Assembly: GCA_903857865.1 (NCBI GenBank)
Contig: CAIOGO010000022.1
Coordinates: 59,176-123,175, forward strand
Origin: an uncultured bacterium
GTDB taxonomy: Bacteria; Bipolaricaulota; Bipolaricaulia; UBA7950; UBA9294
DNA length: 64,000 nucleotides
Direction of reading: 5' to 3'
Shown: positions 27,731 to 50,758 of the stretch, one piece after another
How positions within the stretch are numbered: position 1 is the stretch's first letter
Layout: each line of letters begins with the position of its first letter
Position numbers and translations under genes: made by a program
The notes under the pieces: generated by a model
Seen by the model: the letters and a program-made list of their open reading frames with translations, nothing else
The model's database searches: none
What the model was told of the DNA's origin: nothing

Positions 27731-27881
27731 GTTGACCGCCTTTCGTAATATGTAGTTGTTGGCGGTAGTATATAGATAAGCGACACAATATGCAAACCGG
27801 CAGTGGAGTGCATATCAGAACGCGGCTTGGGGCCCCAGGCGCAAGGCGTTGCGAGAGACGAGCGCTATACTCAGCAGCGCC

Positions 27882-28322: not shown

Positions 28323-28350
28323 GCGCGGCTGCGGCGTGTCGCGACCTTGC

Positions 28351-33324: not shown

Positions 33325-34925
33325 ACGAGATCCTGGTCGAGCGCGGCCGTTACTTTGACTCCGTCTTCCTCATGCGCATCAGCCGAGAGCTGGAGGCGAT
33401 TCCCGGAGTCCGCCGCGCGGTCGTCGCCATGGGAACGCCGGCCAATCTTGCCGCCCTGGAGAGCGTCGGATTCAAGCTCACGGCCGAGGCCGTCGGCCCG
33501 CGGGCCGGCCCCTCGCCAGGAGACGCCTCCGCAGGGACGTCTCCCCTAGCCGGCCCGCAGGCCGGCCTCCGAGCCGACGATCTCGTGACCGCTCTCGACG
33601 CCGAGAGTCCCGACGCGTTCGAGGCAGCGAAGCGGAGGCTCGTCGAGCTTCTCGCGGCGGGCACCGAGGAAAGCGAGAAGACCGAGGATCGTCCGACGAC
33701 GCTCGACGAAGCGCTCGCCATCGATGCAACGGCCAACCTCGCCTTGATCTCGGTTCCCGGCGCGTACGCGGCCGCCGAGGCGCGGCACGCGCTGCGCCGC
33801 GGCCTCCACGTGATGCTCTTCTCTGACAACGTGACCGTCGAGGACGAGATCGCGCTGAAGGATGAGGCCGCAGCCCGAGGCCTCCTCGTGATGGGCCCCG
33901 ACTGTGGCACCGCGATCCTCAACGGCGTGCCGCTCGGATTTGCCAACGTCGTGCGCCGTGGCGCCATCGGCCTCGTCGGGGCGTCGGGCACCGGGATTCA
34001 GGAAGTGTCCTCTCTCATCGACCGGTTGGGCGGCGGGATCTCCCAGGCCATCGGTATGGGAGGCAGGGACCTCTCAGAACGGGTTGGCGCCCGATCCACG
34101 CTCGCGGCCATCGGCCTTCTGGCCTCTGACCCAGCGACCGCGATCCTCGTAGTCGTCTCCAAAGCGCCTGCCAAGGCGGTGGCCGACCGCGTGATCGCTC
34201 GGCTGCGCGAAGCCGGGAAGCCGGCCGTCGTGCAGTTCGTCGGGGCAGCAACCCGCACAGCCGAAGGCGCGATCACTTTCGCCGACACGCTGGACGCCGC
34301 CGCGCGCGCCGCCTGCCGACTTGCCGGCGTCGAGGTTCCGGTGGAAGCGACGCTCCTGAATCTTCCGCGGGCTCACTTCCAGCCTGAGCTGAAGCGGGGG
34401 CTGCGCCCCCTGCGGGGCCTCTTCTGCGGCGGCACGCTTGCGCAGGAGGCGTGGGTTGTCCTGCACCAGGGCGGGCTCGAGGTGCGATCGAACGTCGCCG
34501 TCGACCCCGCGCTGAAGGTGAAGCCTGGAGCCAAAGTCCGCGGCCACGTCATCTGGGACCTTGGCGACGACGCGTTCACCGTCGGCCGACCCCACCCGAT
34601 GATCGAACCTGCGCTGCGCGATGACCTTGTTGCGGCCGCGCTCGGCGATCCCGGCGTGGCCGTCGTCCTCGTCGACTGCGTCCTCGGCTACGGAGCACAC
34701 CGCGACCCCGCCGGAAGCCTTGGCGCGGCCGTGGTCAACGGAAAGGTGGCGGGAACGCAGAGCGTCGTGATTGCCTCGATCACCGGCACGGAGCGCGATC
34801 CGCAGGGCTACCGCGAGCAACGCCGCACGCTCGAAGCGGCCGGAATCCTCGTCCTTGACAGCAACGCACTCGCTGCGAGATTGGCTCTGGACCTCGTGAG
34901 GCGTGCCGGAGGAGGTGGCGCATGA
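33321..34925 (+). CDS. fdrA: FdrA-family protein (succinyl-CoA-synthetase-alpha-like)
   Basis: GTG start in a GTGA overlap with the coxL-like stop; CoA-binding/ligase-CoA pattern; ~534 aa. Confidence 0.7.
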   Translation: MNEILVERGRYFDSVFLMRISRELEAIPGVRRAVVAMGTPANLAALESVGFKLTAEAVGPRAGPSPGDASAGTSPLAGPQAGLRADDLVTALDAESPDAFEAAKRRLVELLAAGTEESEKTEDRPTTLDEALAIDATANLALISVPGAYAAAEARHALRRGLHVMLFSDNVTVEDEIALKDEAAARGLLVMGPDCGTAILNGVPLGFANVVRRGAIGLVGASGTGIQEVSSLIDRLGGGISQAIGMGGRDLSERVGARSTLAAIGLLASDPATAILVVVSKAPAKAVADRVIARLREAGKPAVVQFVGAATRTAEGAITFADTLDAAARAACRLAGVEVPVEATLLNLPRAHFQPELKRGLRPLRGLFCGGTLAQEAWVVLHQGGLEVRSNVAVDPALKVKPGAKVRGHVIWDLGDDAFTVGRPHPMIEPALRDDLVAAALGDPGVAVVLVDCVLGYGAHRDPAGSLGAAVVNGKVAGTQSVVIASITGTERDPQGYREQRRTLEAAGILVLDSNALAARLALDLVRRAGGGGA

Positions 34926-36370
34926 CGAGAGACTTCCTTCAAAGCCAGCTCCGTGTCGTGAACCTCGGCCTCGCGTCGTTTGCCGACAGCTTGCGCGCGG
35001 CCGGCGCGCCTGTCGTTCACGTCGACTGGCGGCCGCCGGCCGGCGGCGATCCTGAGCTGGCGCGCATTCTCGACGACTTGCGTTCCGAGGATGGATCCGG
35101 CTGGAGGGAGCCGATTGCGTCGGCGAACGCGGAGGTCGTCGCCAAGCTTCTCGCCGCCGAGCCGCACGTCGTCGGCATCGGCCGCGCCGGCGACGTCGTC
35201 CCGGGCATGACCGACCGCACGATTCTGCACGCCGGCCCGCCGATCGTGTGGGACGCCATGTGCGGCCCGATGCGCGGCGCCGTGATCGGCGGCCTCCTCT
35301 ACGAAGAGCTGGCTGCGTCGCCCGAAGAAGCCGCCGAGCTTGCGGCATCCGGCGAGATCCGCTTCAGCCCGTGCCACCATCACCAGGCCGTCGGCCCCAT
35401 GGCCGGAGTCGTGACGGCGTCGATGCCGGTGTGGATCGTCGAGAACGCCGCGTTCGGCAACCGCGCCTTCTGCACCCTCAACGAGGGTCTCGGCAAGGTT
35501 CTGCGCTACGGCGCGTACTCCGAGGAGGTCTTGGTCCGCCTCGTCTGGATGCGCGACGTGCTTGCGCCCCTTCTCGTCAAAGCGCTCCGGAAGCACGGGC
35601 CGCTCGACCTGCGTAGCCTCCTCGCGCAAGCGCTGCAGATGGGCGACGAGGGTCACAACCGCAATCGGGCTGGCACGTCGCTCGTGATCCGCGAGCTTGC
35701 GCCGCACCTCGTTCGCCTGACCGCGCGGCGCGACGACGTCGCACGCGTCTTCGAGTTCCTGAATGCGAACGACCACTTTTTCCTCAACCTCAGCATGCCG
35801 GCCGCCAAGTGCGCGCTTGACGCTGCAGCCGACGTGCCGGGAAGCTCGCTCGTGACCGTCATGGCGCGCAACGGCGTCGAGTTCGGCATTCGACTCTCCG
35901 GAACCGGCGACCGCTGGTTCACCGCGCCGGCACCACGGGTCGACGGCCTCTACCTTCCCGGTTACAGCGCCGCCGACGCCGCGCCTGACATCGGCGACTC
36001 GGCGATCACCGAAACCGGCGGCTACGGCGGCTTTGCCATGGCCGCCGCGCCCGCCATCGTCCAGTTTGTCGGCGGCAGCCCCGAGAAGGCGCTCGAGACG
36101 ACGCGCCGCATGCGCAAGATCACGCTCGCGGAGAGCAACGCGTACCGCATCCCGGCCCTCGGCTTCCGCGGCACGCCGACCGGCATCGACGTACTGCGCG
36201 TTGTCGAGACGGGCGTCTTGCCCGCCATCAACACCGGCATCGCCCACAAGGAACCCGGCGTCGGCATGGTCGGCGCCGGCCTCGTCATCCCGCCGTTCGA
36301 CTGCTTCGCCCAGGGCGTCAGGGCTTTGGCGAGTTCGCTCCTTCAGCAACCCTCGGAGCGCGCAGACTAG
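34922..36370 (+). CDS. DUF1116 (YlbE-like) protein
   Basis: ATGA overlap with fdrA; YlbE-like family similarity. Confidence 0.65.
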   Translation: MTRDFLQSQLRVVNLGLASFADSLRAAGAPVVHVDWRPPAGGDPELARILDDLRSEDGSGWREPIASANAEVVAKLLAAEPHVVGIGRAGDVVPGMTDRTILHAGPPIVWDAMCGPMRGAVIGGLLYEELAASPEEAAELAASGEIRFSPCHHHQAVGPMAGVVTASMPVWIVENAAFGNRAFCTLNEGLGKVLRYGAYSEEVLVRLVWMRDVLAPLLVKALRKHGPLDLRSLLAQALQMGDEGHNRNRAGTSLVIRELAPHLVRLTARRDDVARVFEFLNANDHFFLNLSMPAAKCALDAAADVPGSSLVTVMARNGVEFGIRLSGTGDRWFTAPAPRVDGLYLPGYSAADAAPDIGDSAITETGGYGGFAMAAAPAIVQFVGGSPEKALETTRRMRKITLAESNAYRIPALGFRGTPTGIDVLRVVETGVLPAINTGIAHKEPGVGMVGAGLVIPPFDCFAQGVRALASSLLQQPSERAD

Positions 36371-36443
36371 ATCAGCCAGAATGGCCGTCGGTCTCTTCCC
36401 CGAGTAGTATGGACCAGTGTCTTCTCCAAATGGGGTGAGGTAG

Positions 36444-37517
36444 ATGGACATGAAATCGGAGTTGTACGAGCTGTGCCAGCGCGTGCCAGACCTGGCCGCG
36501 AAGGTCCGCACCGAGGAGGCTACGAAGCATGGTCTGGTCCTCCCGTTCATCAAAGCCCTCGGCTACAACGTCTTCGATCCCGCCGAGGTGGTCCCTGAGT
36601 TCATAGCCGACATCGGAGAGAAGAAGGGCGAGAAGGTGGATTACGCCATTCTTATGGATGGGAAGCCTATTCTTCTCTTCGAGTGCAAGACCTGCGGCGA
36701 GCAGCTTGAGCCTCAGCGAGCCATACAGCTTCAGCGCTACTTCCAAGGCGTAGCGAGCGTCAGGTTCGGAATTCTCACGGACGGGCTCGTTTATCGATTC
36801 TACTCCGACCTAGAACGCCCAAACGTCATGGACGCGAAACCGTTCCTTGAGATCAATCTCCAGAGCCTTACGGACGATGACGTTGAGCAACTCCGGAGAT
36901 TCTCGAAGCAGTCGTTCAACGTAGCTGACATCCTCGGAACCGCTGGTGCCCTCAAGTACACGCGCGAGATTCGGCAGCTACTGGAGACCGAGTTCGACAC
37001 GCCAAGTGACGACTTTCTCGAGTTCCTGACGCGGCGCGTCTATGGTGGGAACTTCACTAAGGCGGCTCTCGCGCGCTTCGTCCCCATCGTACAGAAGGCA
37101 CTTCGGGAGTTCGTGAACGGCCGAATCACACGCACCCTGGAAGCAGCTAGGGATCTTCAGGCGAGCGGACGCGCCGCGGAAGAGGCTGAGAGTGCGGGTA
37201 CAGGTGAGGAGTTGGTGACGACAAGCCACGAGTTGCAGGGCTACTACATTGTCAAAGCCATCCTGAGTCCCCACGTTGACCTCGGCCGGGTTGCGATCCG
37301 AGATGTCCAGAGCTACTGCGGTATCCTTCTTGACGACAGCAACCGCAAGCCTATCTGCCGACTGCACTCTAACGACCAGAACAAACTCCGGCTAGGCCTT
37401 TTCGATGCTGCGAAGCAGGAGGAACGTGTGCCGCTCCAACGCGTTGACGACATCTACAAGTACGCTGACCGCATTCGAGAGGTCGTGCGGAGCTACGATT
37501 CGCAGGAGAAGGTGTGA
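36444..37517 (+). CDS. HsdR-N / PD-(D/E)xK nuclease-fold domain protein (orphan)
   Basis: KVDYAILMDGKPILLFECK = D…ExK core as in the type I restriction R-subunit N-terminal domain; lower local GC. Confidence 0.5.
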   Translation: MDMKSELYELCQRVPDLAAKVRTEEATKHGLVLPFIKALGYNVFDPAEVVPEFIADIGEKKGEKVDYAILMDGKPILLFECKTCGEQLEPQRAIQLQRYFQGVASVRFGILTDGLVYRFYSDLERPNVMDAKPFLEINLQSLTDDDVEQLRRFSKQSFNVADILGTAGALKYTREIRQLLETEFDTPSDDFLEFLTRRVYGGNFTKAALARFVPIVQKALREFVNGRITRTLEAARDLQASGRAAEEAESAGTGEELVTTSHELQGYYIVKAILSPHVDLGRVAIRDVQSYCGILLDDSNRKPICRLHSNDQNKLRLGLFDAAKQEERVPLQRVDDIYKYADRIREVVRSYDSQEKV

Positions 37518-37659
37518 GGGGAGGCGTGCGAAAGACGCGACAGTCCTCCAAGCTACGAGCTGCATGCCACAGGCTGCCGCTTGTCTTTTCGAGTCGGGCG
37601 GCAGCTAGGGTCGAAGCTCCCTGCGGTCACTTCGACAGGCCGCCCCAGGAGGTAAGGCA

Positions 37660-38529
37660 ATGAAACTCATCGATCTGACGATCCCTCTCTCGATCGCCAC
37701 GCCGCCGTGGCCGACCTACGAGCCCCTGCAGGTGAAGTACTTCAAGCGGCTCGCGCCCAATGGCGCGAACGGGCAACTCGTCACGCACTCGAACCACGTC
37801 GGCACGCACCTCGACGGCGAGATCCACTTCTACACCCCGGGCAAGGACATTGCCCAGCTCAGCCTTGACTTCCTCGTTCACGAGGGCGTCATCGTCGACC
37901 TCTCCGACGCCGTCGGCGACTACGACATCTACACGTCCGCGATGATCGAGGAACGTGTCGAGGTGAAGGAAGGCGACATCCTCATCCTCCACACCGGCTA
38001 CCACCACTACGGCTGGGACCAGCCGACGGCTGACGAAGTGCGGTACATGGTCAAGCACCCCGGACCCGACCGCGAGTTTGCGCTGTGGTGCCGCGAGAAG
38101 AAGATTCGCTGGATCGGCGTCGACTGCGGCTCGGCCGACCACCCGATGAACACCATCATCCGTGACTGGATGCCGCGCCAAGCGAAGGAAGCCGACGCTC
38201 ACTTCCGCGCCAAGTACGGCCAGCCGCTGGCCGAGCGGTTCGACCCCGGCAAGTACCAGCTCATGCACATCGAGCTCTTCTGCCACGGCATCATTCACGC
38301 CGAGTGCCTCGGCGGCGACATCGACCTGCTCCTCAATCAGCGCGCTGTCATCGGCTGCTTCCCGTGGCGTTTCGTCGACGGCGAAAGCTCGATCGCGCGC
38401 ATCGTCGCCATGGTCGATGACGACCGCCACGCCGAGCTGATGCAGATCAAGTCCGAGTGCGTCTTGACCAAGCACGGCGACGTCGCCGGAGCGAAGAATC
38501 CACAGTTGCATGAGGTCGGGCGAACGTAG
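37660..38529 (+). CDS. cyclase family protein (kynurenine-formamidase-like metal hydrolase)
   Basis: HVGTHLDGEIHF motif. Confidence 0.75.
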   Translation: MKLIDLTIPLSIATPPWPTYEPLQVKYFKRLAPNGANGQLVTHSNHVGTHLDGEIHFYTPGKDIAQLSLDFLVHEGVIVDLSDAVGDYDIYTSAMIEERVEVKEGDILILHTGYHHYGWDQPTADEVRYMVKHPGPDREFALWCREKKIRWIGVDCGSADHPMNTIIRDWMPRQAKEADAHFRAKYGQPLAERFDPGKYQLMHIELFCHGIIHAECLGGDIDLLLNQRAVIGCFPWRFVDGESSIARIVAMVDDDRHAELMQIKSECVLTKHGDVAGAKNPQLHEVGRT

Positions 38530-38545
38530 GCGTTGCCTACGTTCG
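38521..38545 (+). terminator. terminator-like perfect hairpin overlapping the cyclase stop codon
   Basis: cgaacgtagg-cgttg-cctacgttcg (10-bp stem). Confidence 0.35.
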
Positions 38546-38547
38546 CC

Positions 38548-38749
38548 TAGGGCAGAAGCTGGTCTTCGGTTGCTTCTGCTGGACGCACGTAGCCAGAGCC
38601 TCTAGCGGAAGCATCACAGCTCATTGCTTCCGCCCCAGGTGAAGGCCAGTCTCGTTCGGGCCTTCACCCGTGTGGCTAGGGGTCGAAGGCTGCTCGACGG
38701 CGCGCGGGGCGAGGAGCTAGGGCGGAAGCCGATGAGTGGCTGCTTCCGC
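38548..38749. repeat. array of REP-like hairpins of the form CTAG(G)GC(R)GAAGC-N12-GCTTC(Y)GC
   Basis: Hairpins at 38548-38580, 38602-38633, 38718-38749 (and gtgaaggcc…ggccttcac at 38639-38667); a near-identical copy at 42288-42319. Confidence 0.6.
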
Positions 38750-38923
38750 GCTCAGCGGGAGTCGAGGTGATGCACATCACAGTCGCGGACAGATCTCCAG
38801 GACGTGACGTGCATCACGTCCGCGCCGCTTCTGCTCAGCGTGATGCGCATCACGCAATGGATGTCGCCACGGTGGGGGGCAGATGCTGTATCGGATGCCA
38901 AGAGTAAAGATTTGACCCCGGCG
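38718..38923. repeat. copy A of a ~180-bp direct repeat (REP-like hairpin + GATGCRCATCAC palindromic motifs + conserved 3' block ggatgccaagagtaaagatYtgaccccggcg)
   Basis: Conserved blocks align with 42288-42449. Confidence 0.55.
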
Positions 38924-38962
38924 CCCTTTGCGGAGAGGAGGGGAACAAGATATCCTTCAGGT

Positions 38963-40570
38963 ATGCCTGATGGCGAGAATGGTGATCTGTCTCGTGTAAC
39001 TCGGGTGTCCCTTCGCAACAAGCATAGCGCACCGAGTGAGAGAGAGGCCTCGGCGCGGAGGAAGTTCTACGTGCCGTCAAGGTACAACCACTTTCTCCGT
39101 GACGGGGACCGCTGGCTCGGTGCCAACCTGCTGTCCGGGGCTGTGATGAACCTGCGGGACGATGACTGCGCGCTCGTTCATCGCCTCTTGGCAATGAAGG
39201 TCAGACCACGCCAGCTCCCTGAGCGGGTGCTCTATGACATGCTCGTCAAGTCTCGTTTTCTCGTTCCGGCGGACTCTGATGAGACTGCGTACTTGAAACA
39301 GCTGTTTGCGGTTGGAAAGCAGTGCCGGGTAGGGTTCTCGCTGGGTCTTGTCGTCACGTTGGCGTGCAACTTCAGGTGCGTCTACTGCTATCAGGACCAT
39401 CGTCGCGCGATCATGGGTACCGACGTGCAGGACGCTGTCATGGCTCTGCTCAGGAAAGCGCTGCCGGGGAAGGAACACTTCACGGCATCGTGGTTCGGCG
39501 GTGAGCCACTGTTGAAGCCCAGGGTGATCACCGACCTCGGGCGACGGATGATTCAGTTGTGTGACTCTCTGGGTGTGAACTACGACTGCGTGTTAACGAC
39601 AAACGGCTATTTGCTCACACGAGCCAACATCGCGATGCTGGCAGCCGGCCGAGTCAGCCACATTCAGATCACCTTGGACGGACCGCGCGAGTTGCACGAC
39701 GTCACTCGACATCTCCAGGACGGGTCGGGCACCTATGAGGTCATCATGGCGAACCTCGGGAATCTGGTGAGGACTCTGCCTGAGGTGCCGATAACCATTC
39801 GCTGTAACATAACTGCCAGCTCCATGGCCGCCGGCGAGCACGCATGGAGCAGGCTTCTGTCGGACTTGGAGCCGTACAGGCGGTCGGTCTCGCTCACCAT
39901 TTGCCCGGCAATTCCGAGCAGGACGTCAAACGCGCACTGCATATCGAAGAGCCAGTTCGGGGATTTCTATGGCCACGTATCGACGATGATGGAGGAGAGA
40001 GGCTTCAGAGTAGCTTCGGATGGGCCCTCCCCAGGCGCCGTCTCCTGCGGCGCCATCCCGAGGCTGAACTGGCTCATAGGCCCTACCGGGCATGTCTCCA
40101 AGTGCACGGTGGGAGCGGACGAAACGGACGGCTATCTCGGGCGACTTGGGCCGGACGGCACGATCGACCTCTCAGCCGAGGCAGCGAGATGGCTGAATTT
40201 CTCACCGTTTCGTCTCAAGAAGTGTCGTGAATGCAGTGTTCTTCCCCTCTGCATGGGAGGCTGTGTGATTGTTCCATTTGACGATCCGCACGTAGACAGA
40301 TGTGACATCAAGACTAACGTGCTGATGTATGTGAAGAGCAACCTACCCAGAAAGGAGGTGATTGATATGACCGTACCGCAGTTCAACCTTGAGCGCGTGG
40401 AGAAAGCTCTCGAACAAAGCGCGACGGAGTACTACACGAGCCTGTTTGTTCAAGCGGGCATCCCTAAGGATGTTGCCTCGAAGGCAGCAATGGTGTGCGC
40501 CACTAACAAGTGCAAGGGGCCTGGCTTCCAGCCTGGTGGCCAGGCTCTACAGGCGCTCGTAACGACCTGA
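38963..40570 (+). CDS. radical SAM / SPASM-domain protein (anSME-like peptide-modifying maturase)
   Basis: CNFRCVYCYQ (CX3CX2C) and C-terminal SPASM cysteines (CRECSVLPLCMGGC); start uncertain (ATG 38963; the track ORF from 38804 runs through the repeat). Confidence 0.65.
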   Translation: MPDGENGDLSRVTRVSLRNKHSAPSEREASARRKFYVPSRYNHFLRDGDRWLGANLLSGAVMNLRDDDCALVHRLLAMKVRPRQLPERVLYDMLVKSRFLVPADSDETAYLKQLFAVGKQCRVGFSLGLVVTLACNFRCVYCYQDHRRAIMGTDVQDAVMALLRKALPGKEHFTASWFGGEPLLKPRVITDLGRRMIQLCDSLGVNYDCVLTTNGYLLTRANIAMLAAGRVSHIQITLDGPRELHDVTRHLQDGSGTYEVIMANLGNLVRTLPEVPITIRCNITASSMAAGEHAWSRLLSDLEPYRRSVSLTICPAIPSRTSNAHCISKSQFGDFYGHVSTMMEERGFRVASDGPSPGAVSCGAIPRLNWLIGPTGHVSKCTVGADETDGYLGRLGPDGTIDLSAEAARWLNFSPFRLKKCRECSVLPLCMGGCVIVPFDDPHVDRCDIKTNVLMYVKSNLPRKEVIDMTVPQFNLERVEKALEQSATEYYTSLFVQAGIPKDVASKAAMVCATNKCKGPGFQPGGQALQALVTT

Positions 40571-40680
40571 ACCTGATAGCACAGACCGGAACTCCGCGCA
40601 GGAGGGGGAACCGGAGATGATGGCCGGTAATTCTGCCTTCCGGTTCCTCCTTGGTCTTCAACGTCGCAGCAGGATAGGTA

Positions 40681-40709
40681 GCAGCCCGACTTGACGCAAG
40701 TCGGGCTGC
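40681..40709 (+). terminator. terminator-like hairpin downstream of the radical SAM gene
   Basis: gcagcccgactt-gacgca-agtcgggctgc. Confidence 0.35.
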
Positions 40710-40799
40710 TGGGTGACGCAGCGAGAGGGGGCTACCATTGGGCGTTGGGCGATGGGGTCAGGTCTTGTAATCGCGTACTGTCTGTGCTAGGCTGGCGTC

Positions 40800-41660
40800 A
40801 TGGCTCGCCCCCTCCGGATTGAGTACCCCGGCGCTGTCTACCATGTGACCTGTCGCGGCAACGCACGGGAGAAGGTCTTCCTTGTCGATCCCGATCGAGA
40901 GCTCTTCCTTGAAGTGTTCGCGGAAGTTGTAGAGCGCTTTAGCTGGCGCTGCCATGCGTACTGTCAGATGACGAACCACTACCACCTGCTGATCGAGACG
41001 ATTGAGCCCACCCTGTCGCATGGCATGCGACAACTGAACGGTGTCTACACCCAGGAGTTCAACCGCCGGCATCGTCGCACGGGACATGTCTTCCAGGGAC
41101 GTTTCAAAGCCATTCTCGTCGAGCGCGACGCCTATCTCCTCGAGCTTGGACGCTATGTTGTCCTGAATCCCGTTCGCGCCAAGATGGTGCGGAGGGCGCA
41201 AGACTGGCCGTGGTCAAGCTTCCGTGCGACGGCCGGCCTTGAGGACGTGCCCTTCTTCCTCGCCACAGACTGGATTCTCGAGCAGTTCGCGACATCGAAG
41301 GCGAAAGCGCAGAAGGCATACCGCAAGTTCGTCTCGGAAGGCCGTGGCGTCCCGGTGTGGGAGCACCTCCGCGGGCAGATCTACCTCGGCAGCGACACGT
41401 TCATCGAGGAACACGCGCCGGAACTGCCTCCAGTTCGCGAGATTCCGAAGACCCAGGTCCAGGTCCGTCGGCCGCCGCTCTCGGCCATTGTTGCCGACCC
41501 GAAAGACGCCGCGAGCATTGCACGCGCATACATCGAGCACCACTACGCCCAGCACGAGATCGCCAGCCACCTCGGCGTTCACTACTCGACGATCAGTCGA
41601 CGACTCCGAGCCTCCTGCGTGCCGCGGACTCGCAACATGGTACGCGATTACAAGACCTGA
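40800..41660 (+). CDS. REP-associated tyrosine transposase (RAYT) / IS200-like Y1 transposase with C-terminal HTH
   Basis: YHVTCRGN…HAYCQMTNHYHLLIE HuH motif and catalytic Tyr region; C-terminal HTH (…HLGVHYSTISRRL). Confidence 0.75.
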   Translation: MARPLRIEYPGAVYHVTCRGNAREKVFLVDPDRELFLEVFAEVVERFSWRCHAYCQMTNHYHLLIETIEPTLSHGMRQLNGVYTQEFNRRHRRTGHVFQGRFKAILVERDAYLLELGRYVVLNPVRAKMVRRAQDWPWSSFRATAGLEDVPFFLATDWILEQFATSKAKAQKAYRKFVSEGRGVPVWEHLRGQIYLGSDTFIEEHAPELPPVREIPKTQVQVRRPPLSAIVADPKDAASIARAYIEHHYAQHEIASHLGVHYSTISRRLRASCVPRTRNMVRDYKT

Positions 41661-41912
41661 CCCCGCACGCACTATGCGGACTACCTGCGGGACGGGATCT
41701 ACGAGCTGCGGGTGCGAGTCTCGACGACCCGCTACAGGGTTCTGTACTTCTTCTGCGACAGGACGGACATCGTGCTTGCTCACGCGATTGTGAAGGAGTC
41801 GGCGCGGGTTCCTAGGGCTGAGATCGACCGAGCTGTTCGCTGCATGGAAAACTGGATCGGGAGGAGACATGAGGACCCACAGGGAGTACCTCGCGAGCGA
41901 GCTCAAGGATGA
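41661..41912 (+). pseudogene. 5'-truncated higB-like (Gp49/DUF891 family) toxin gene remnant, in frame directly after the RAYT stop
   Basis: …YLRDGIYELRVRVSTTRYRVLYFFCDRTDIVLAHAIVKESARVP… matches the C-terminal two-thirds of Gp49-like toxins; no N-terminal portion or start codon. Confidence 0.5.
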
Positions 41913-42189
41913 GGCGTTCGCACGCGAGTTCCGCCGCGAGAAAGCACAGCTGCGGATTGCCTACGACATCCAGACCACGCGGCAACGCCTTGGACTGACG
42001 CAGAAAGACCCTGCCGGGATGGCGGGCGTGACGCAGCAGATGGTGTCACGCATCGAAACAACGAGGACGCCCAACATGACTCACGGCTCGATATGCAAGA
42101 TCGCTGAAGTGCTCGGCATGGATGTGGGACTCGTCGCGCGCCGTCCAGCCCGCGTCGCCGCGAAGACGGGCAAGAAGGTGCGCGCCTGA
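41869..42189 (+). CDS. XRE-family HTH antitoxin (HigA-like)
   Basis: HTH QRLGLTQKDPAGMAGVTQQMVSRIE. Confidence 0.6.
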   Translation: MRTHREYLASELKDEAFAREFRREKAQLRIAYDIQTTRQRLGLTQKDPAGMAGVTQQMVSRIETTRTPNMTHGSICKIAEVLGMDVGLVARRPARVAAKTGKKVRA

Positions 42190-42287
42190 CGGCTGCGAAG
42201 GGGGCCGCCCTATCAGAGTATCCAATCCTCAGCCCAGACGATGGTGTTGGGGGTGAAGGGCTACTCGGCGTTGTGGCCCGGCCGTAG

Positions 42288-42449
42288 CTAGGGCGGAAGC
42301 CGACGAGTGGCTGCTTCCGTGTGCTCGATAGAGGACGGAGGTAATGCGTATCACGTTCGCTGAAGGTTACGTGCGTCACACGATGGACGGCGCCACGGTG
42401 AGTGGCAGATGGTGCATCGGATGCCAAGAGTAAAGATCTGACCCCGGCG
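42288..42449. repeat. copy B of the ~180-bp direct repeat (see 38718-38923)
   Basis: ctagggcggaagccgacgagtggctgcttccg … ggatgccaagagtaaagatctgaccccggcg. Confidence 0.55.
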
Positions 42450-42462
42450 TCCCGGCCGAGTC

Positions 42463-43191
42463 TCAGACGCTCAAGCCAAGATCGTCTTTGCACCAACTGG
42501 AGACGACAGCCGCCACTGCATGACGGTTGGCGAAGTCCACTGGCTTGTAGATCTTCCCGCCGATATCTGACGGCATCGACGGAGCCGTACGGTCTTTCAG
42601 GAGAGCGCACCTCCGGCCGGTCATGAGCATCGCACCGACCTCACTCAAGACGTTGTAGTTCAAACCACGGCCAAGTCTGTCCTCAAACAAGCCAATGCCA
42701 AATCTACACGCCCACATGTGCGCCGCAACGTTTCCATGGATGTCATCAACCAGCTGGCGATCCGATGCCAGGTGCAACTCAAGCCCCGACTCAGAGACAA
42801 CCCGACGAATGTGCGGGATGAGTTCTGCAAGAACGTCGGCCTCCTCATCCTCACGAGCGGAGGGGAAACGCGTCATGAGGAGGACATTGGTCTCAAATGC
42901 GTGTTCGGCCAAGAAACGTTGGATTGCCCCCGCCCATACGCCCGGGCAGAGCTCCGGCGGCACAACCGAGTGCAGAGCGTTCCCGAAGAAGCTTCCGCTG
43001 TACTCCTGAGTGGTGACCGCCGGTTTCTTCCAGTCCGTTCTGCCCAGCCCAGCAGCAACTGCTGCCCTACCCGAGGGTGAGACTGCATATGCCTTGTCCT
43101 TCTTGACCAAGTACTTAGCCACCACCAGCCGACCGAGAGATGCGTGGAGATTCCCCGGCTTCGGTAGTCTAAGGGCAGCGTACAGTTCCAC
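42463..43191 (-). CDS. hypothetical protein; N-terminal wHTH-like segment and a C-terminal Rossmann-like region ending in a TIR-like SSWCKDDL motif (speculative)
   Basis: 242-aa ORF in the lower-GC island; motif read directly from the sequence. Confidence 0.4.
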   Translation of the reverse strand: MELYAALRLPKPGNLHASLGRLVVAKYLVKKDKAYAVSPSGRAAVAAGLGRTDWKKPAVTTQEYSGSFFGNALHSVVPPELCPGVWAGAIQRFLAEHAFETNVLLMTRFPSAREDEEADVLAELIPHIRRVVSESGLELHLASDRQLVDDIHGNVAAHMWACRFGIGLFEDRLGRGLNYNVLSEVGAMLMTGRRCALLKDRTAPSMPSDIGGKIYKPVDFANRHAVAAVVSSWCKDDLGLSV

Positions 43192-43307
43192 GACATCCTG
43201 AGGTGAGATCCAGCCCGCCGGTGATCGCTGTCCCGCAATGCTGCATAAGGCCAGAACCTGGTCGCTAGGACGGAGAAGTTGCAGCGCAAGAGCGCTCTGC
43301 TCGTTGC

Positions 43308-43895
43308 TCAGCTTGCACCTCCACTGGCCAGTCCGTCAACAAGCGTTCTCAACCTTTCTTCACCGACCTTGTTGAGCCTTACCTGTCGCTTCTGACCCAC
43401 TCCCCTTGAGCTGAACACGTCCTGCATCGTCTTCAGTGCCGACGCGAAGTTGGCTTGATCGTACTTCCCGTAGTGCTCGCACACTTCCCGGATACTAGCA
43501 GAGCTGGTCCACTCCTCGATTCCGCCAACCTGTCTGCCCCCAGCAACGAGAAGAGCGATCTGCTTTGCCGCAGGGGACTTCCCCGCATCGAGCTTTCCGA
43601 CCGGCACCACTGGCATCAACCCGCTGTCGTCGAACGCGTACACCTCCTTCACCCGGTCCAGCCCGACGTTCAACTTCTGCGCAATGCGCTGCAAAGGCTG
43701 GTCCGAGCCCGTATCGGGCGTGCCGCTCCTGCCCCCGGTTGGCCCCTTGGCATCCGCAGGGGCCTCCACTCCGCTGCCACCGCGCAGGAAGAAGTCGATA
43801 GCTCTCTCAAACGCGACTGCCTGAAGCGCATCGGGTAGTTCGGCCTCACGGACTGCACTCCACGACTCCTTTAGTACGTCCCTCATGTTCGTCAT
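43308..43895 (-). CDS. hypothetical protein (upstream partner of 42463-43191)
   Basis: Start MTNMRDVLKESW at 43895 with a GGAGGG RBS; ~195 aa; no recognisable domain. Confidence 0.4.
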   Translation of the reverse strand: MTNMRDVLKESWSAVREAELPDALQAVAFERAIDFFLRGGSGVEAPADAKGPTGGRSGTPDTGSDQPLQRIAQKLNVGLDRVKEVYAFDDSGLMPVVPVGKLDAGKSPAAKQIALLVAGGRQVGGIEEWTSSASIREVCEHYGKYDQANFASALKTMQDVFSSRGVGQKRQVRLNKVGEERLRTLVDGLASGGAS

Positions 43896-44573
43896 CCTAC
43901 CCTCCATCTGCAGCTCTGCAATTGATGTCGACAATCGACACCACATGATCTTGACGAAGTATACCCCGCGCGTCACCTCACGTCAAGGAGTTGGAAATAG
44001 CGGCCATATCTTGTCACGGAGCAATCGATTGGTGATAGTTCCACTTCCATTGCACAGTGGCATATGCTGCAGGGATCGGACGTTGCGCATCGGCCATGGC
44101 ATGTCTAGACGATGTGCACCAGTGTCACTGTCCATTGCATGGCATGAGGCGGCCATCCATTTCTCTCAGTTGGCGGCAGCGCCACAAGACGCAGAGGCTG
44201 GCTAATGCTTACTGTGACTGAAGTGTGCCGTAGAGATATGCATGCTGTTCTTCGGACACGACGGCGACACTATTCTGCATACCAATACGAAGCACACCAA
44301 CAGCCGTCTCGTCTCTGCCACTTCACCCGCACCTCGAGACAGCTGGGGCGGCGCAGCAGCCCGCGCCCAGCAGGTGGGGAGCAGCCTCATCGGTCCCTCC
44401 GCGGGAGCACGTCACCTCAGTTGGATTCGGAGTCGCCCGCTACGTCACAGCATGCGCTGAACTGAAGTTGTGTCGAGCTGCGGAGTCTGCGGCTTGACGA
44501 TTCCCAAAGGCGTTGCCAGAATCGGTCTTGTATCCACGACATACACGTTGTGTCACGCGCCCCGAGGAGCGAA

Positions 44574-44888
44574 ATGGAACCCGAGAAGCAGAAGCGGTTC
44601 TACGGTGCGGTGACGGTGAGCGAGCGCGGGCAGATTGTGGTGCCCGCCGCGGCCGGTCGGGACTTCAACATCCAGCTGGACGACAAGCTTCTAGTGTTCG
44701 GCGATCTGGACCAGGGAGTAGCCCTCGCGCCGTTCGGCATTTTGCGGAAGACGATGCAGGGGGCAATGGACTTCCTGCACGAGGCAGGTCCGGCAGTGTC
44801 GGCTTGGGTGATCGGGCAGATCTTGTTTCTTGACATCACACGGGAGCGCGTGCAGCTCCTCGCGCCTCAAGCGTGTCCAGCCGTCTAG
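44574..44888 (+). CDS. AbrB/MazE/SpoVT-family DNA-binding domain protein
   Basis: VTVSERGQIVVPAAAGRDFNIQLDDKLLVF swapped-hairpin motif. Confidence 0.5.
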   Translation: MEPEKQKRFYGAVTVSERGQIVVPAAAGRDFNIQLDDKLLVFGDLDQGVALAPFGILRKTMQGAMDFLHEAGPAVSAWVIGQILFLDITRERVQLLAPQACPAV

Positions 44889-45949
44889 GTCTTCTGCAAC
44901 TCGATGAAGACATGACGGTCGACTGCGCGGCGCGACAGGACCTCGAACCCGGCTGCCTCCGCCAGTTGCTGATAGTAGGCTGCATCCCGACCTTCGGATG
45001 GCCAGCGAACGCCGTAGTTGTTCGAGATCGTCTCTCCGTCCGCCAGTTCTACGGTGACGGGGAAGATGGCGACGTCTTCGTCCTCGTTCGTGCGAGGGGG
45101 CAGGACTGTGTCCCAGATGAGGAAGCGGCCGCCGGGCGCGAGGACACGGAAGACCTCCTCGAAGACGCGCTGGTGGTCTTCGTTTCCCATGTACATGAGG
45201 GTGAAGAACGAAGTCGCTGTCTGGAGAGTGCTGTCGAGGAACTGGAGATCCCGAGCGTCCATCACGATCTTGAGCGGGCCGGCGGGTGCTTCCTCCAGTT
45301 CTTCCTTGAGGCGATCGATGGCGATGACCCGCTCGCCCGCGATGAGACCGATGATGCCTCCTCCGCCACCGCCGATGTCGAGGATGGTCCCGGAGGTCGG
45401 TAGGCCGTCCACGACAACGTGCTGGCGCTCGAAGGTGTGCGTTCGGTTGTCCGCATCCTCGCTGAGGCTCTTACGCATCTGGAAATCCCTAGTCTCGGTT
45501 GGCGCTTCGTCTTCCGCGAACCCCAGCTTCTTGTAGAGGGCACGCGCCGGAGCGTTGTCGGCGCGCACGTAGAGGACGACGTTGCGGATGCCATCCGCTT
45601 TCAGAGAGTCGAGCATCCGCTCGAGGATCGCGCGGCCCAATCCCCGGCCGCGGTGCGCCTCGTGCACGTAGATGTCGAAGAGCAGACACGTGTCTGCTGG
45701 TATGCCTGGGGCGACGCCAACCCAGACGAATCCAAGCTCCTCTCCAGTCTCATCCCGGGCGATCCGGAACGCGTGGTTCGGCGTGTCCATGCCATTCGGA
45801 AGGAGCATGGGAATCATCGCCTCGAGCTGGGCGCGCTCGGTCTCGGGATCGGTGCCATTCACCCAGGCACGATCCTTCGCCTGGCGCTCGGCCGAGAGCG
45901 CGAACCAGCGATCGAACTCCTCCCGAGTCGGTCGATCGAGATGGATCAT
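44885..45949 (-). CDS. GNAT N-acetyltransferase fused to class I SAM-dependent methyltransferase
   Basis: N-terminal GNAT motif (HRGRGLGRAILE); C-terminal GxGxG SAM motif (ILDIGGGGGG). Confidence 0.6.
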   Translation of the reverse strand: MIHLDRPTREEFDRWFALSAERQAKDRAWVNGTDPETERAQLEAMIPMLLPNGMDTPNHAFRIARDETGEELGFVWVGVAPGIPADTCLLFDIYVHEAHRGRGLGRAILERMLDSLKADGIRNVVLYVRADNAPARALYKKLGFAEDEAPTETRDFQMRKSLSEDADNRTHTFERQHVVVDGLPTSGTILDIGGGGGGIIGLIAGERVIAIDRLKEELEEAPAGPLKIVMDARDLQFLDSTLQTATSFFTLMYMGNEDHQRVFEEVFRVLAPGGRFLIWDTVLPPRTNEDEDVAIFPVTVELADGETISNNYGVRWPSEGRDAAYYQQLAEAAGFEVLSRRAVDRHVFIELQKT

Positions 45950-46048
45950 GCGGTGCCTCCCTGCCTCGTACGCAGCAGTCCGCCCAATGAGTCGCAGTCT
46001 TGTGGCCTGGGGTTCAATCGTGCCCACACGGGGGCTCAGCCGAGGCTC

Positions 46049-46636
46049 CTAGCCCCTCTTCAGGTCTTTGCCGATCTCGAACGCCTGGCCGATGCGTTCG
46101 TCGAGTGCCCAGTAGCTGTGGACCTGCTTCCCGCGACTCGGATCGGGTGCGTAGAAGAAGGGTTGGATGCGCGTCACGTCGGGGACTCTGTCCTGCGTAA
46201 ACTCCTCGTTTGCGTACACGGCAACGACTTCGCCGACGTACACGGTGTGAACAGGGCGCACGAGCGTCTGCACGACGCGACACTCGACGTTGACCGGGCA
46301 CTCTTGGATCATCGGCGCGGTCTTGAGCTCTCCGTAGAACGTCTCGAACAGCGTCGCCTTCTCGCCGGTTCGACCGCTCGTCATGCCGCAGAAGTCGACT
46401 TCCTTCACTTGGCCGGCCGTCGGCTGGTTGATGCTGAACGTGCGATTCTGTTCGAGCCCCGTCCTCGAGTACTGCTCGTGCCCGACCGAGATCGACATCA
46501 TGTCATAGCACAGCCACCCGATGAGGCCGATCGTGATGAAGTTCGGCTTGTCGTCGACGTTCACGCCGACGAGCATCGGGGTATACGGGAACACGAGATT
46601 CTTCACGGCTCGCAGCTCTAGCTTCTTCTTCTCCAC
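46049..46636 (-). CDS. flavin reductase family protein (FMN-binding split barrel)
   Basis: GTG start at 46636 with a GAGG RBS; flavin reductase-like domain pattern. Confidence 0.6.
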   Translation of the reverse strand: MEKKKLELRAVKNLVFPYTPMLVGVNVDDKPNFITIGLIGWLCYDMMSISVGHEQYSRTGLEQNRTFSINQPTAGQVKEVDFCGMTSGRTGEKATLFETFYGELKTAPMIQECPVNVECRVVQTLVRPVHTVYVGEVVAVYANEEFTQDRVPDVTRIQPFFYAPDPSRGKQVHSYWALDERIGQAFEIGKDLKRG

Positions 46637-46896
46637 GGAGCACCTCTGCCGCCATCGTACTGCGGACGGTCTCGCCACCGTCTCGGGTGCGCGCCCACAG
46701 GAGCTCGAGCCGCATGCTCTCGACTGCTCATGAGAAGGGGGCGGCTTGTGGCCGGCCTACATGAGGATATCCCTGTTTGCTTCCATCTCTCGTTCATACG
46801 ATGATGTATGTCGATGAGTTCCGGCGAGCGGGCGCGGCCAGACTGGATCCGCGGGCGACCCTCCCCTGAGGGAGGGCGACGGCCGGAACGAGGAGG

Positions 46897-49059: not shown

Positions 49060-49186
49060 AAAACGTTGGCCGCCGCGTTGAGTGGCAGCGCAAAGTGCTG
49101 TAGGGCCCCGCGCCGAGCGCGGGGCCTCTTCTTGCGCTGTCTCGCGCAGTTGGCTAGGCTCAGCTTGCGTCGCGAAGGAGGAGGAC

Positions 49187-50737
49187 ATGGCGGGTGGGGA
49201 AGCGAGCGGGACGAGGAAGTCGATCGCCATCATCGGCGGAGGCGTCGCGGGGCTGTGCGCCGGCTGCTACGCCCAAATGAACGGCTACGAAGCCACGGTT
49301 TACGAGATGCACAGCCTTCCCGGCGGCGTCTGCACCGCGTGGAAGCGGAACGGCTACACCGTCGACAGCTGCATCCATTGGCTGCTCGGCTCCGGTCCCG
49401 CGTCCGGGTTCCACAAGCTGTGGAGAGAAGTAGGGGCGCTTAGAGGACTCACGATCGTCGACCTTGACGAGTTCATGCGCGTCGAGTGTAAGGGAAGTCC
49501 CGCCCTCGTCTTCTATCGCGACGTCGATCGCCTCGAACGGCACCTGCTCGAGCTTGGACCCGAGGACGCGAAGCCGATCCGAGAGCTGACGAACGCCATT
49601 CGCAAGTTCACGCGATTCGACATGCCGGTTGACAAGGCGCCCGAGCTGTACACGGTGTGGGACAAGTTCCTGATGGGCGCGCGCATGGTGCCTCTCGGCC
49701 CGGCGTTCATGAAGTGGCGCAAGGTCACCGTCGCGGACTTCGCGAAGCGCCTGAAGAGCCCCGCTCTCCGCGAAGCGTTCGGGGCGATGCTTGGCGAGTT
49801 CGACTCCTTCCCGATGCTCGGCCTGATCATGCCGCTCGCGTGGCAAGAGATGAAGACGGCGGGGTATCCCCTCGGCGGCTCGATGCCGTTCGTCCGCAAC
49901 ATCGAGAAGCGGTTGCTCGATCTTGGCGGGCAGATACGATACTCATCCAGGGTATCGCAGATCCTTGTGGAGGAAGGCGTCGGTGGCTCTGTCGCTCGAG
50001 CGGTCGGGGTGCGGCTTGTCGACGGAACCGAGCACCGCGCCGATGTGGTCATCTCCGCCGCCGACGGGCGCACGACGATCTTCGACATGCTTGGCGGCCG
50101 TTTCGCAGACGACGCCGTGCGCAAGCCCTACGAAGGAGGCATGACGCCCTTCTCGCCGCTTCTCTATGTGGGCCTCGGTATCGCCGATCCTCTCGACGGC
50201 ATCCCGCAGGTCGGCTCAGGCATCAGCTTCCCGCTCGACCCGAAGGTCGAGATCGACGGAAAGGCGAGGGATCGGCTGTCGATGATGGTCTACAACTTCG
50301 ATCCCGCGCTTGCCCCCGCCGGAAAGACGACGGTCATCGTCATGATCAGCGCCGACTACGACCGCTGGAAGGCGCTGCGCGAGGATCCTGTGCGCTACCG
50401 CGCCGAGAAGGAGCTCGCGGCAGAGCGCGTCATCGACGCCCTCGAGCAGCGCATTCCCGGGATCCGGGCAAAGGTCGAGATGCGCGACGTCGCAACGCCG
50501 GTGACGTGGGAACGCTACACCGGCAACTGGCGCGGAAGCTACGAGGGCTGGCTGATGACCGGGCAGTCGCTCGGAAAGCAGATGTCGAAGACGCTTCCTG
50601 GGCTTTCCGGGTTCTACATGGTCGGCCAGTGGGTCGCACCCGGTGGCGGACTGCCGCCGGCAGTCTCCACCGGACGGCACGTCGTGCAGATCCTGTGCAA
50701 GAACGACGGCAGACGTTTCGTCGCGCTGGAGCCGTAG
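49187..50737 (+). CDS. FAD-dependent oxidoreductase, phytoene desaturase (CrtI)/amine-oxidase family
   Basis: GGGVAGLCAG dinucleotide-binding motif; strong RBS GAAGGAGGAGGA. Confidence 0.75.
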   Translation: MAGGEASGTRKSIAIIGGGVAGLCAGCYAQMNGYEATVYEMHSLPGGVCTAWKRNGYTVDSCIHWLLGSGPASGFHKLWREVGALRGLTIVDLDEFMRVECKGSPALVFYRDVDRLERHLLELGPEDAKPIRELTNAIRKFTRFDMPVDKAPELYTVWDKFLMGARMVPLGPAFMKWRKVTVADFAKRLKSPALREAFGAMLGEFDSFPMLGLIMPLAWQEMKTAGYPLGGSMPFVRNIEKRLLDLGGQIRYSSRVSQILVEEGVGGSVARAVGVRLVDGTEHRADVVISAADGRTTIFDMLGGRFADDAVRKPYEGGMTPFSPLLYVGLGIADPLDGIPQVGSGISFPLDPKVEIDGKARDRLSMMVYNFDPALAPAGKTTVIVMISADYDRWKALREDPVRYRAEKELAAERVIDALEQRIPGIRAKVEMRDVATPVTWERYTGNWRGSYEGWLMTGQSLGKQMSKTLPGLSGFYMVGQWVAPGGGLPPAVSTGRHVVQILCKNDGRRFVALEP

Positions 50738-50758
50738 CGTCGTGACGATTCGCTGAGT

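Follow-up and report, generated by a model that had tools for sequence, protein, structure and literature searches.

Is a run of bacterial DNA that stands out by its composition and its assortment of mobile and conflict-related genes a single acquired island whose genes work together, or a site at which unrelated elements have come to lie side by side? The question is raised by positions 36370-44600 of a stretch from an uncultured bacterium of the Bipolaricaulota (GenBank assembly GCA_903857865.1, contig CAIOGO010000022.1, positions 59,176 to 123,175 of the forward strand), the whole 64,000 nucleotides (64 kb) of which we term the window. This interval contains genes for a nuclease, a maturase of the radical S-adenosylmethionine (rSAM) type, a transposase and a truncated toxin, together with two minus-strand genes, here called H and G. 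We found it to be a strain-variable accessory hotspot that lies downstream of a conserved xanthine-dehydrogenase/allF/allG/cyclase-family gene cluster and was assembled through at least three independent events. For H and G we infer a toxin–antitoxin (TA)-like or abortive-infection module centered on a predicted N-glycosidase, specifically a putative NADase (an enzyme cleaving nicotinamide adenine dinucleotide, NAD+), which is related in fold to TIR domains and nucleoside deoxyribosyltransferases (NDTs). Taken as one claim, the three-event mosaic together with such a TIR/NDT-type module is the reading that we favor, with moderate confidence.

A hotspot assembled in separate events

A preliminary description of this DNA, made from its letters alone, had proposed a single accessory island of lowered GC content, reaching from an allG (ylbE-like) gene to an AbrB-like gene. 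The compositional part of this proposal holds well: the interval has a GC content of 0.601, as against 0.650 for the whole window and 0.692 for the block directly upstream, and is the lowest among 224 sliding 8.2-kb windows. Past its right end the GC content remains at 0.60-0.64 over several kb; hence, this edge cannot be defined by composition alone. The single island, on the other hand, dissolves upon comparison with relatives, whose contigs were reached through look-ups of near-identical flanking proteins, into three separate indels around backbone genes, with the right boundary at 44883/44884. The relative most useful here is L180 (L-numbers label the compared loci or contigs of other assemblies), which shows about 92% nucleotide identity with the window (blastn) and aligns with it in the blocks 31062-36310, 37657-38582, 41669-42453 (this one at 78% only) and 44884-56644. 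The DNA specific to the window therefore consists of the three intervening segments, numbered 1 to 3 in Table 1. The gene order in L180 is allG, the cyclase-family gene, an intact higB of 129 amino acids (aa), higA, one miniature inverted-repeat transposable element (MITE)-like repeat and a gene for an unrelated 316-aa membrane protein, after which it continues with the GNAT-methyltransferase, flavin reductase and Band_7 genes, all common to the window. In the more distant L174-L179 (71-85% identical), allG is joined directly to the cyclase-family gene, the synteny with the window ends at 38529, and an MNT/HEPN pair followed by sulfate-assimilation genes comes next. This NTP_transf_2/HEPN pair, of the MNT-HEPN TA type, lies at about 11013-12007 of these loci, directly past the cyclase-family gene. 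Thus, three lineages bear three different TA- or conflict-type occupants at one site, and the site past the cyclase-family gene is a hotspot with another occupant in each lineage.

A uniform origin could nevertheless be argued, in that the whole interval would be one horizontally acquired island with cooperating genes, for instance a defense system based on a nuclease or on a ribosomally made peptide with post-translational modifications (RiPP). Both the GC content and the GC content at third codon positions (GC3) are indeed uniformly lower across the inserted genes, and repeats of the repetitive extragenic palindromic (REP) or MITE type mark several of the junctions. Yet conserved backbone genes (the cyclase-family gene and higBA) stand between the segments, each of which is present or absent in relatives independently of the others, and the rSAM pair described below and H-G lie apart in all other loci examined. 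Moreover, the features expected of an integrative island were not found: there is no integrase or comparable recombinase in profile scans of the open reading frames (ORFs) of the region, no tRNA within 8 kb of it according to ARAGORN, no attachment repeat and no presence or absence as one block. The independent carriage of the segments by relatives, with backbone genes in between, largely refutes the one-island model, and we regard it as very improbable. The GC3 values follow the same partition, with the inserted genes at 0.66-0.75 (the HsdR-N-type nuclease gene 0.72, the rSAM maturase 0.72, its precursor peptide 0.68, the transposase 0.75, the higB remnant 0.71, H 0.71 and G 0.66) and the backbone genes at 0.84-0.89 (allG 0.87, the cyclase-family gene 0.89, the flavin reductase 0.86 and Band_7 0.84).

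The interval had also been said to switch to mobile or defense-type content. It is indeed accessory DNA that varies between strains and abounds in genes of the mobile, TA and conflict types; however, the cyclase counted among them, although present as a PF04199 gene, belongs to the metabolic backbone. It is a member of the arylformamidase-type hydrolase family rather than a defense or signaling cyclase, adjoins allG in L174-L180 and is 85-94% identical to its relatives at the nucleotide level. As to the expectation that this is the likeliest place in the window for an undescribed defense or RiPP-type system, a RiPP pair and a conserved uncharacterized operon are present, but PADLOC models recovered no complete known defense system in the region. 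Rfam likewise gave zero matches in 36-46 kb at E-values up to 1, and zero across the whole window at gathering thresholds. On the whole, the region is an ordinary mosaic hotspot with mostly ordinary mobile and accessory DNA, and the HsdR-N gene, the RiPP pair, the transposase, the higB remnant with higA and H-G are functionally independent neighbors that do not make up a single system.

The H-G operon and its predicted activity

H and G, which had been set down as two unknown minus-strand genes, keep that status in our scans, in which neither has a usable family in PADLOC, Pfam, NCBIfam or PHROG. The one marginal match is that of G to the PADLOC candidate PDC-S35 (E-value 0.0077 over 40 residues; 15 of 37 family members match it weakly, at best with 6e-5), on which we found no literature; a search of PDB sequences with the G profile gave no match. 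The family of G is large. A word-seeded search retrieved 1544 homologs and an exhaustive profile search 1549 representative clusters at 50% identity, 1143 of them at an E-value of 1e-10 or better and 87 at 1e-30 or better, and none of the homologs bears a Pfam domain or a name. In four contexts obtained by exact look-up, a gene of 190-195 aa with 31-40% identity to H is found directly upstream on the same strand, and across 80 loci from named genomes an H-like gene directly precedes 51 of the 96 G matches, mostly with gaps of -65 to +113 nt. A second small partner with the same layout (small N-domain, disordered linker and winged helix) is encoded at 15 further loci, and a third variant, related to the second, at four more. 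Since hhalign gave the alternative partners a probability of only 10% against H (and 93% between the two alternative families), we claim the layout alone as common to them and not homology to H. H-G is thus a conserved, widespread operon.

Some loci depart from the two-gene form. In L055 and L058 (Solirubrobacteraceae) an extra gene of ~181 aa sits within about 540 bp between the H-like gene and G, and at about eight loci a further winged-helix-like gene of ~167 aa comes before H; the module therefore has three-gene variants. Two diverged G paralogs occur on different contigs (L047 and L057) of the Gaiellales metagenome-assembled genome JBBRMM01, one with H in an element with integrase, Prim-Pol and terminase genes beside an SRA-HNH gene, and the other with a different small upstream partner.

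The H protein displays winged-helix domains of the PadR/MarR type, whereas G combines an N-terminal winged helix with a C-terminal domain that matches, in structural comparison, NDT, MilB, BcmB, DNPH1, LOG, the Cap12 TIR-STING protein and SARM1. This C-domain shows the hallmarks of the TIR/DrHyd(NDT)/SLOG class, namely a three-layer alpha/beta architecture with a five-stranded parallel sheet and an acidic residue after strand 4. The residues invariant in the family include N154, E170, N178, N180, E184 and G186, and the motif N-P/Y-N-[IV]-x-x-E-[LV]-G-[AY]-M and both glutamates are invariant even where the domain is N-terminal or accompanied by other partners. Some distant relatives score above the threshold of Pfam PF10137 (the CAP12/Pycsar TIR family); one such distant relative has CHAT and STALD domains and another HEAT repeats.

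The hosts of G are mostly Actinomycetota (Solirubrobacterales, Gaiellales, Mycobacterium, Nocardioides, Aeromicrobium, Microbacterium, Amycolatopsis and Leifsonia), joined by Chloroflexota, Verrucomicrobiota, Trueperaceae and others. The genes flanking G are not conserved. A tyrosine-recombinase cluster lies within five genes of it in 12 of 72 loci, one locus is situated inside an integrase/Prim-Pol/small-terminase element beside an SRA-HNH gene, and DNA methylases, a type II restriction enzyme, SoFic and dGTPase-like genes are occasional neighbors. Plasmids of 3.6-13 kb from Citrobacter, Salmonella and Klebsiella code for a protein of ~312 aa with the same C-domain as nearly their sole cargo. 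In one of these, the non-mobilizable 3.6-kb Citrobacter freundii plasmid NZ_OW967268.1 (L173), the C-terminal half of a 312-aa hypothetical protein (1648-2586) is 34% identical to the TIR/NDT-like domain of G, the other content being a helix-turn-helix (HTH) gene and a replication gene fragment; near-identical plasmids are found in Salmonella and Klebsiella. The cassette itself is mobile: L006, whose copy is 98% identical, shares 42451-44632 with the window and, past a MITE-like repeat, has different genes.

The copy of the operon in the window has an unusual start. The first canonical start codon of G is a GTG at 43191, which would give a protein of 242 aa; the frame is open for 40 codons upstream of it, and these codons align with the N-terminus of the family. 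A CTG at 43309-43311 overlaps the TGA stop codon of H (CTGA), at the point where relatives have an overlapping start and stop, and L006 displays a synonymous CTG-to-TTG change nine codons downstream of this CTG. The true start of H is at 43895 (43308-43976 in the ORF list), so that the adjoining gap, described as ~600 bp at 43977-44573, is indeed free of called genes but runs from 43896 to 44573 (~680 bp). It has promoter-like sites on both strands and lacks an Rfam match, excess folding (z-scores +1.27 and -0.19) and any trace of the third gene found before H in certain genomes; from its sequence, it looks like a divergent promoter region. Beyond the gap, the AbrB-like gene falls inside the variable part given the right boundary at 44883/44884. 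It was considered as a conserved partner of H-G and rejected, as no AbrB-like homolog lies near G in 80 other loci. The 316-aa protein found in L180 at the site of the cassette was likewise examined as a relative of G and proved to be unrelated. Directly past segment 3, at 44885-45949 on the minus strand, lies a gene for a 354-aa fusion of a GNAT acetyltransferase with a class I methyltransferase, which is conserved in L180.

We propose that G is an N-glycosidase of the TIR/DrHyd(NDT)/SLOG class. NAD+ would be its likeliest substrate because of the link of its family to PF10137, a class reported to comprise NAD+-consuming effectors in conflict systems (PMC9503650), with a (modified) nucleoside monophosphate as the second choice because of the MilB- and DNPH1-like fold matches. 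G could be tethered to DNA or to its partner via its own winged-helix domain, and H (with its tandem winged helix, translated just upstream and often with overlapping stop and start codons) might act as the DNA-binding regulator, antitoxin or sensor of G. Upon a disturbance, for instance infection by a phage or loss of the element, G would then be freed or assembled, resulting in depletion of a nucleotide cofactor and arrest of the cell. A role in conflict, be it defense or addiction, is in our estimate plausible while falling short of probable.

Several points weigh against this proposal. H and G have no characterized homolog, their putative function being read from sequence and fold, and G lies under every Pfam, NCBIfam, PHROG and PADLOC threshold. 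The conserved first 40 codons of this copy of G contain no ATG, GTG or TTG, and it may make an N-terminally truncated protein or depend on the CTG start; it also lacks the C-terminal CxxC with which many homologs end. Elsewhere, most neighbors of G are, by raw count, ordinary metabolic or transport genes, and there is no G homolog among 50,697 phage records. 

The last two observations are also what one would expect if H-G were an ordinary regulatory or metabolic pair with no part in conflict, i.e., a nucleotide salvage enzyme or hydrolase akin to DNPH1, MilB or LOG with a winged-helix transcription factor. The top structural matches, namely MilB, nucleoside deoxyribosyltransferases, DNPH1/Rcl and LOG, are metabolic enzymes and speak for such a pair. 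However, its patchy distribution, its non-conserved neighborhoods and the 98%-identical copy in another context are hard to square with a housekeeping role, as are the loci in integrase-bearing elements, the plasmids with the domain as sole cargo, the relatives that match the Cap12/Pycsar TIR family or are fused to CHAT and STALD, and the GC3 of H-G, which is atypical for the genome. We hence consider the metabolic alternative unlikely. A different possibility is that H-G merely stabilizes mobile DNA as an addiction (TA) module with no anti-phage role. This would fit a compact two-gene operon with overlapping genes that occurs on small plasmids and beside integrases, at a hotspot that houses further TA pairs (higBA in the window, MNT/HEPN in its relatives). 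Against it, the regulator comes first and the large effector second, and both have DNA-binding domains, an arrangement atypical of classic type II TA systems. Addiction alone seems to us rather doubtful, if a shade less so than the metabolic pair; sequence data by themselves do not separate it from abortive infection. The TA-like or abortive-infection N-glycosidase module thus remains our preferred account of H-G.

The other occupants: a RiPP pair, a RAYT element and a nuclease

Segment 2 codes for the rSAM maturase that had been named before, a call confirmed by Pfam and NCBIfam, and for a Cys-containing precursor peptide downstream of it that had been overlooked. The maturase, which probably starts at the ATG at 38963, lacks a stop codon of its own and runs in frame into the precursor, whose ATG at 40367 is preceded by a strong ribosome-binding site of its own (AAGGAGGTGA, spacing 5 nt). 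The CNFRCVYC rSAM motif and the SPASM cysteines of the enzyme are invariant, with seven invariant cysteines in addition to the CNFRCVYC motif. The closest NCBIfam models all stay below their cutoffs (TIGR04463 213.4 against 525, Clo7bot 187.7 against 600 and CefB 145.4 against 600), which places it outside these equivalog families; no useful literature was found on TIGR04463 or on rSAM-precursor fusions. Viperin (pVip) was weighed as an identity and rejected, since NF038283 gave 45.9 bits against a cutoff of 180 and the PADLOC pVip match (E-value 1e-13) spans the generic rSAM core only.

Maturase homologs at 48-50% identity have 433-459 aa and cover about 80% of the query. In two of these loci, L092 and L181, a stop codon closes the maturase gene, and 3-6 nt farther on lies a gene for a peptide of 48 or 52 aa with a similar ribosome-binding site; in pairwise alignment, the ATG of the window falls exactly at the position of the L092 stop. 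The peptides have a C-terminal (D/N/T)KC motif in common (window ...AAMVCATNKCKGPGFQPGG..., L092 ...IPGDKCKKPGTMGP..., L181 ...EETKCSGKCQLLG...), and Cys-containing peptides also come after maturases that are more distant, one of these peptides having a similar leader. With the CxxxCxxC motif, the SPASM cysteines and an adjacent homologous precursor, and with stand-alone homologs of the peptide after related maturases, this is thus a RiPP maturase with its precursor, the pair belonging to a small subfamily that is not curated. The precursor has no match among curated models, and no protease, transporter or immunity gene lies next to the pair. The identical 535-aa fusion product is on record in four contigs, and the fusion recurs in each of the near-identical copies extending to the 3' end; hence, it is no assembly error.

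The fusion could simply be a defect, a point that weighs against reading more into it. The loss of the stop codon would then have inactivated the pair and left it as a dead passenger of the transposon insertion. Such decay would agree with the missing protease, transporter and immunity genes, with the retention of the stop in all the 48-50% homologs and with a setting of repeats and a disrupted toxin gene. On the other hand, the frame, the rSAM and SPASM cysteines, the KC motif of the peptide and its ribosome-binding site are all intact, the same sequence recurs in several assemblies, and the peptide could possibly be translated separately from its own start. We deem decay possible but not probable, and take the pair, judging from its sequence, to be a new member of the rSAM/SPASM maturase class with an unusual enzyme-substrate fusion. 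The in-frame fusion joins an rSAM RiPP maturase to its own substrate, for which modification in cis is conceivable, and as such offers a natural test of an rSAM RiPP enzyme acting on a tethered substrate. Two strong hairpins lie past the precursor gene at 40611-40710, one of the sequence GGAACCGGA...TCCGGTTCC and the other with a perfect stem of 14 bp at 40680-40710. They presumably form either the terminator of the pair or additional REP-type elements just ahead of the left repeat of the transposase.

This transposase is a REP-associated tyrosine transposase (RAYT), which scores 83.7 bits with NCBIfam NF047646 (cutoff 80), matches Pfam Y1_Tnp with an E-value of 3e-12 and shows HYH (HUH) and Y..NP tyrosine motifs in its translation. 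Its identification in the preliminary description is upheld, as are those of the hairpin array and the direct repeats, which a repeat search recovered. The hairpin-opening motif CTAGGGNNGAAGC has seven copies in the window against 0.9 expected, five of which fall within 37.6-42.3 kb. A direct repeat of 94 nt links 38833-38926 with 42359-42452. These 94 nt belong to two copies of a MITE-like composite repeat that end in AAGAT(T/C)TGACCCC, similar to the RAYT repeat ACAAGACCTGACCCC; L180 has one copy, which is 91% identical. The RAYT repeat copies are countable within the 64-kb window only.

The insertion has left its mark on the adjacent TA locus, for which a truncated higB with a higA had been correctly called. 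The Gp49/HigB fragment at 41712-41912 covers only profile positions 48-89 of 90 (Pfam); its frame is open up to the right RAYT repeat, and homology to the intact L180 allele begins at YADYLRDG. The toxin gene thus lost its promoter and about 52 codons to the insertion. A REP/MITE-RAYT element arrived together with the two-part RiPP unit and, in doing so, destroyed the 5' half of higB while sparing higA. The locus illustrates how REP/RAYT-associated repeats lie where genes were gained or lost, and how a single insertion inactivated a resident toxin gene.

Segment 1 bears a single gene, previously noted as an HsdR-N nuclease-fold gene, and the Pfam match agrees. Its product matches phrog_4225 ("endonuclease") end to end with an E-value of 4e-111, which makes it a member of a known stand-alone family that has only the nuclease-type N-domain in common with HsdR; a PDB sequence search found no relative. 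It is carried by all contigs with an identical AllG and is absent from L180 and L174-L179. A single gene has thus been inserted between allG and the cyclase-family gene, and the insertion is polymorphic.

Table 1. Features of the hotspot, in window coordinates
Feature	Coordinates	Strand	Remarks
Window-specific segment 1	36311..37656		1346 bp, against 85 bp in L180; blastn synteny; GC 0.586; also missing from L174-L179
Stand-alone HsdR-N-type PD-(D/E)xK endonuclease-family protein, 357 aa	36444..37517	+	Pfam HSDR_N, E 5e-13
REP-like hairpin (CTAGGGTCGAAGC...CTTCGAC)	37605..37640	+	right junction of segment 1
Cyclase-family gene (arylformamidase-like, PF04199)	37660..38529	+	Pfam E 2e-33; conserved backbone
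REP-like hairpin array, motif CTAGGGNNGAAGC ... GCTTC	38545..38748	+	
Window-specific segment 2	38583..41668		3086 bp, against 461 bp in L180; REP hairpins, MITE-like repeat, maturase, RAYT
MITE-like composite repeat, copy 1	38716..38926	+	ends in AAGATTTGACCCC, similar to RAYT inverted repeat
rSAM/SPASM RiPP maturase, 468 codons	38963..40366	+	no stop of its own; within ORF 38804-40570; Pfam Radical_SAM
Cys-containing precursor peptide, 67 aa	40367..40570	+	in frame with maturase
RAYT left 25-nt inverted repeat (REP)	40754..40778	+	
RAYT	40800..41660	+	extra C-terminal HTH
RAYT right 25-nt inverted repeat	41640..41664	-	100% complementary to left; overlaps gene end
higB remnant, C-terminal ~77 of 129 codons	41661..41912	+	starts at RAYT repeat
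higA-type HTH antitoxin	41869..42189	+	intact; also in L180
MITE-like composite repeat, copy 2	42287..42452	+	left junction of segment 3
Window-specific segment 3	42454..44883		2430 bp; L180 holds 1.34-kb segment with unrelated 316-aa membrane protein
Gene G: winged-helix N-domain and TIR/NDT-like C-domain	42463..43311	-	282 codons from CTG overlapping H stop
Gene H: helical N-domain, disordered linker, tandem winged-helix domains, 195 aa	43308..43895	-	upstream partner of G
Divergent intergenic region	43896..44573		678 bp
Promoter-like site TTGACG-17-TATACT	43958..43986	-	upstream of H; consensus match only
AbrB/SpoVT-domain protein, 104 aa	44574..44888	+	AbrB domain by NCBIfam, E 2e-6; exact look-up confirmed the start

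Elsewhere in the window, about 4.8 kb (24020-28868) is missing from L175, where the flanking homology blocks lie only 190 bp apart, and may be a second variable segment; the REP-like hairpin motif CTAGGGNNGAAGC also occurs at 28089-28127. ARAGORN calls an 89-nt tRNA-Ala at 3642-3730 and a 92-nt tRNA-Ser at 28313-28404, neither of which is reported by the whole-window Rfam scan; either these calls are doubtful or the filters of that scan missed both.

Relation to known systems

Three of the occupants are of known kinds, namely the REP/RAYT element, the higBA remnant and the HsdR-N-type endonuclease. The first resembles the TnpA-REP elements of enterobacteria and pseudomonads in its HUH-Tyr transposase, which scores above the curated cutoff, its perfect inverted REP flanks and the related repeats nearby (here two MITE-like copies with a related end motif); it differs in the extra C-terminal HTH, the right repeat that overlaps the gene end and the few REP copies in 64 kb. 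The second falls short of a HigBA type II TA system with an intact RelE/Gp49-fold toxin and HTH antitoxin, since the toxin is truncated and only the antitoxin is intact. The third differs from a type I restriction-modification enzyme (HsdR) in having the N-terminal nuclease-type domain only, with no methylase or specificity genes nearby.

The RiPP pair parallels the thioether-forming maturases of the TIGR04463, Clo7bot and CefB families in its domain layout and in the short Cys-containing precursor directly after the enzyme. Unlike these, it scores far under their cutoffs, its precursor has no curated model, and the stop between enzyme and substrate is missing. The union of a RiPP enzyme and its core peptide in one polypeptide recalls the borosins, where it is the rule of the family and the methyltransferase OphMA bears its own core. 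Here, however, the enzyme is of another class, and the fusion is peculiar to one lineage whose relatives keep two genes.

H-G is made up of known domain classes in an arrangement that lies outside every curated family or defense catalog. The N-glycosidases of the NDT, DNPH1 (Rcl) and MilB-BcmB groups provide the best fold matches to G. The catalytic pair of NDTs consists of a glutamate and a polar residue, and G likewise has a Glu that starts the helix after strand 4 and a polar residue six positions earlier. In contrast to these enzymes, to which it is 10-16% identical with no sequence-profile match, G has a winged-helix domain in addition and is paired with an obligatory partner gene. G also differs from the Cap12 (TIR-STING) effectors of cyclic oligonucleotide-based anti-phage signaling systems (CBASS) and from PycTIR of Pycsar, both of PF10137: only distant family members pass the threshold of that family, which G itself does not reach, and its N-domain is a winged helix. 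Further, neither G nor its neighbors have a cyclic-nucleotide sensor domain, and no cGAS/DncV-like nucleotidyltransferase (CD-NTase) or PycC is encoded in the region or recurs in the 72 loci. If H-G is a defense or addiction module, it would be a compact addition to the TIR/NDT effector repertoire, with no Pfam family or defense-database assignment. Soil Actinomycetota, in which few defense systems have been tested, are its main hosts, with cultured Mycobacterium, Nocardioides, Aeromicrobium, Microbacterium, Amycolatopsis and Leifsonia among them. The operon may reasonably be regarded as a candidate conflict module, new and of the TIR/NDT type.

Among described systems, the closest parallel is the effector of type II retrons (Retron-Eco1/Ec86 and Retron-Sen2), which joins an NDT-like domain and a DNA-binding domain of the winged-helix type within one protein (PMC7736814), the same two domain types as in G, and is restrained by a nucleic-acid-binding partner (PMC7736814; bioRxiv 10.1101/2023.08.16.553469). 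In G the domain order is reversed, with the winged helix first, and the partner is itself a winged-helix protein; the ORFs of the region code for no reverse transcriptase (RT) domain, and the region has no match to an Rfam RNA family and no excess structure in the gap. Further, the PADLOC models, which are presumed to include retron effectors, do not match G, nor does the retron effector figure among its best matches in structure. By analogy, we tentatively suggest that H-G may constitute a new stand-alone anti-phage (abortive-infection) system of Actinomycetota, Chloroflexota, Verrucomicrobiota and other phyla, in which winged-helix proteins would replace the RT and multicopy single-stranded DNA (msDNA) of the retron in restraining a NAD+- or nucleotide-depleting TIR/NDT-like N-glycosidase. 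The likeness in parts to type II retron effectors, with no retron at hand, bears on how effectors of this kind are silenced and triggered.

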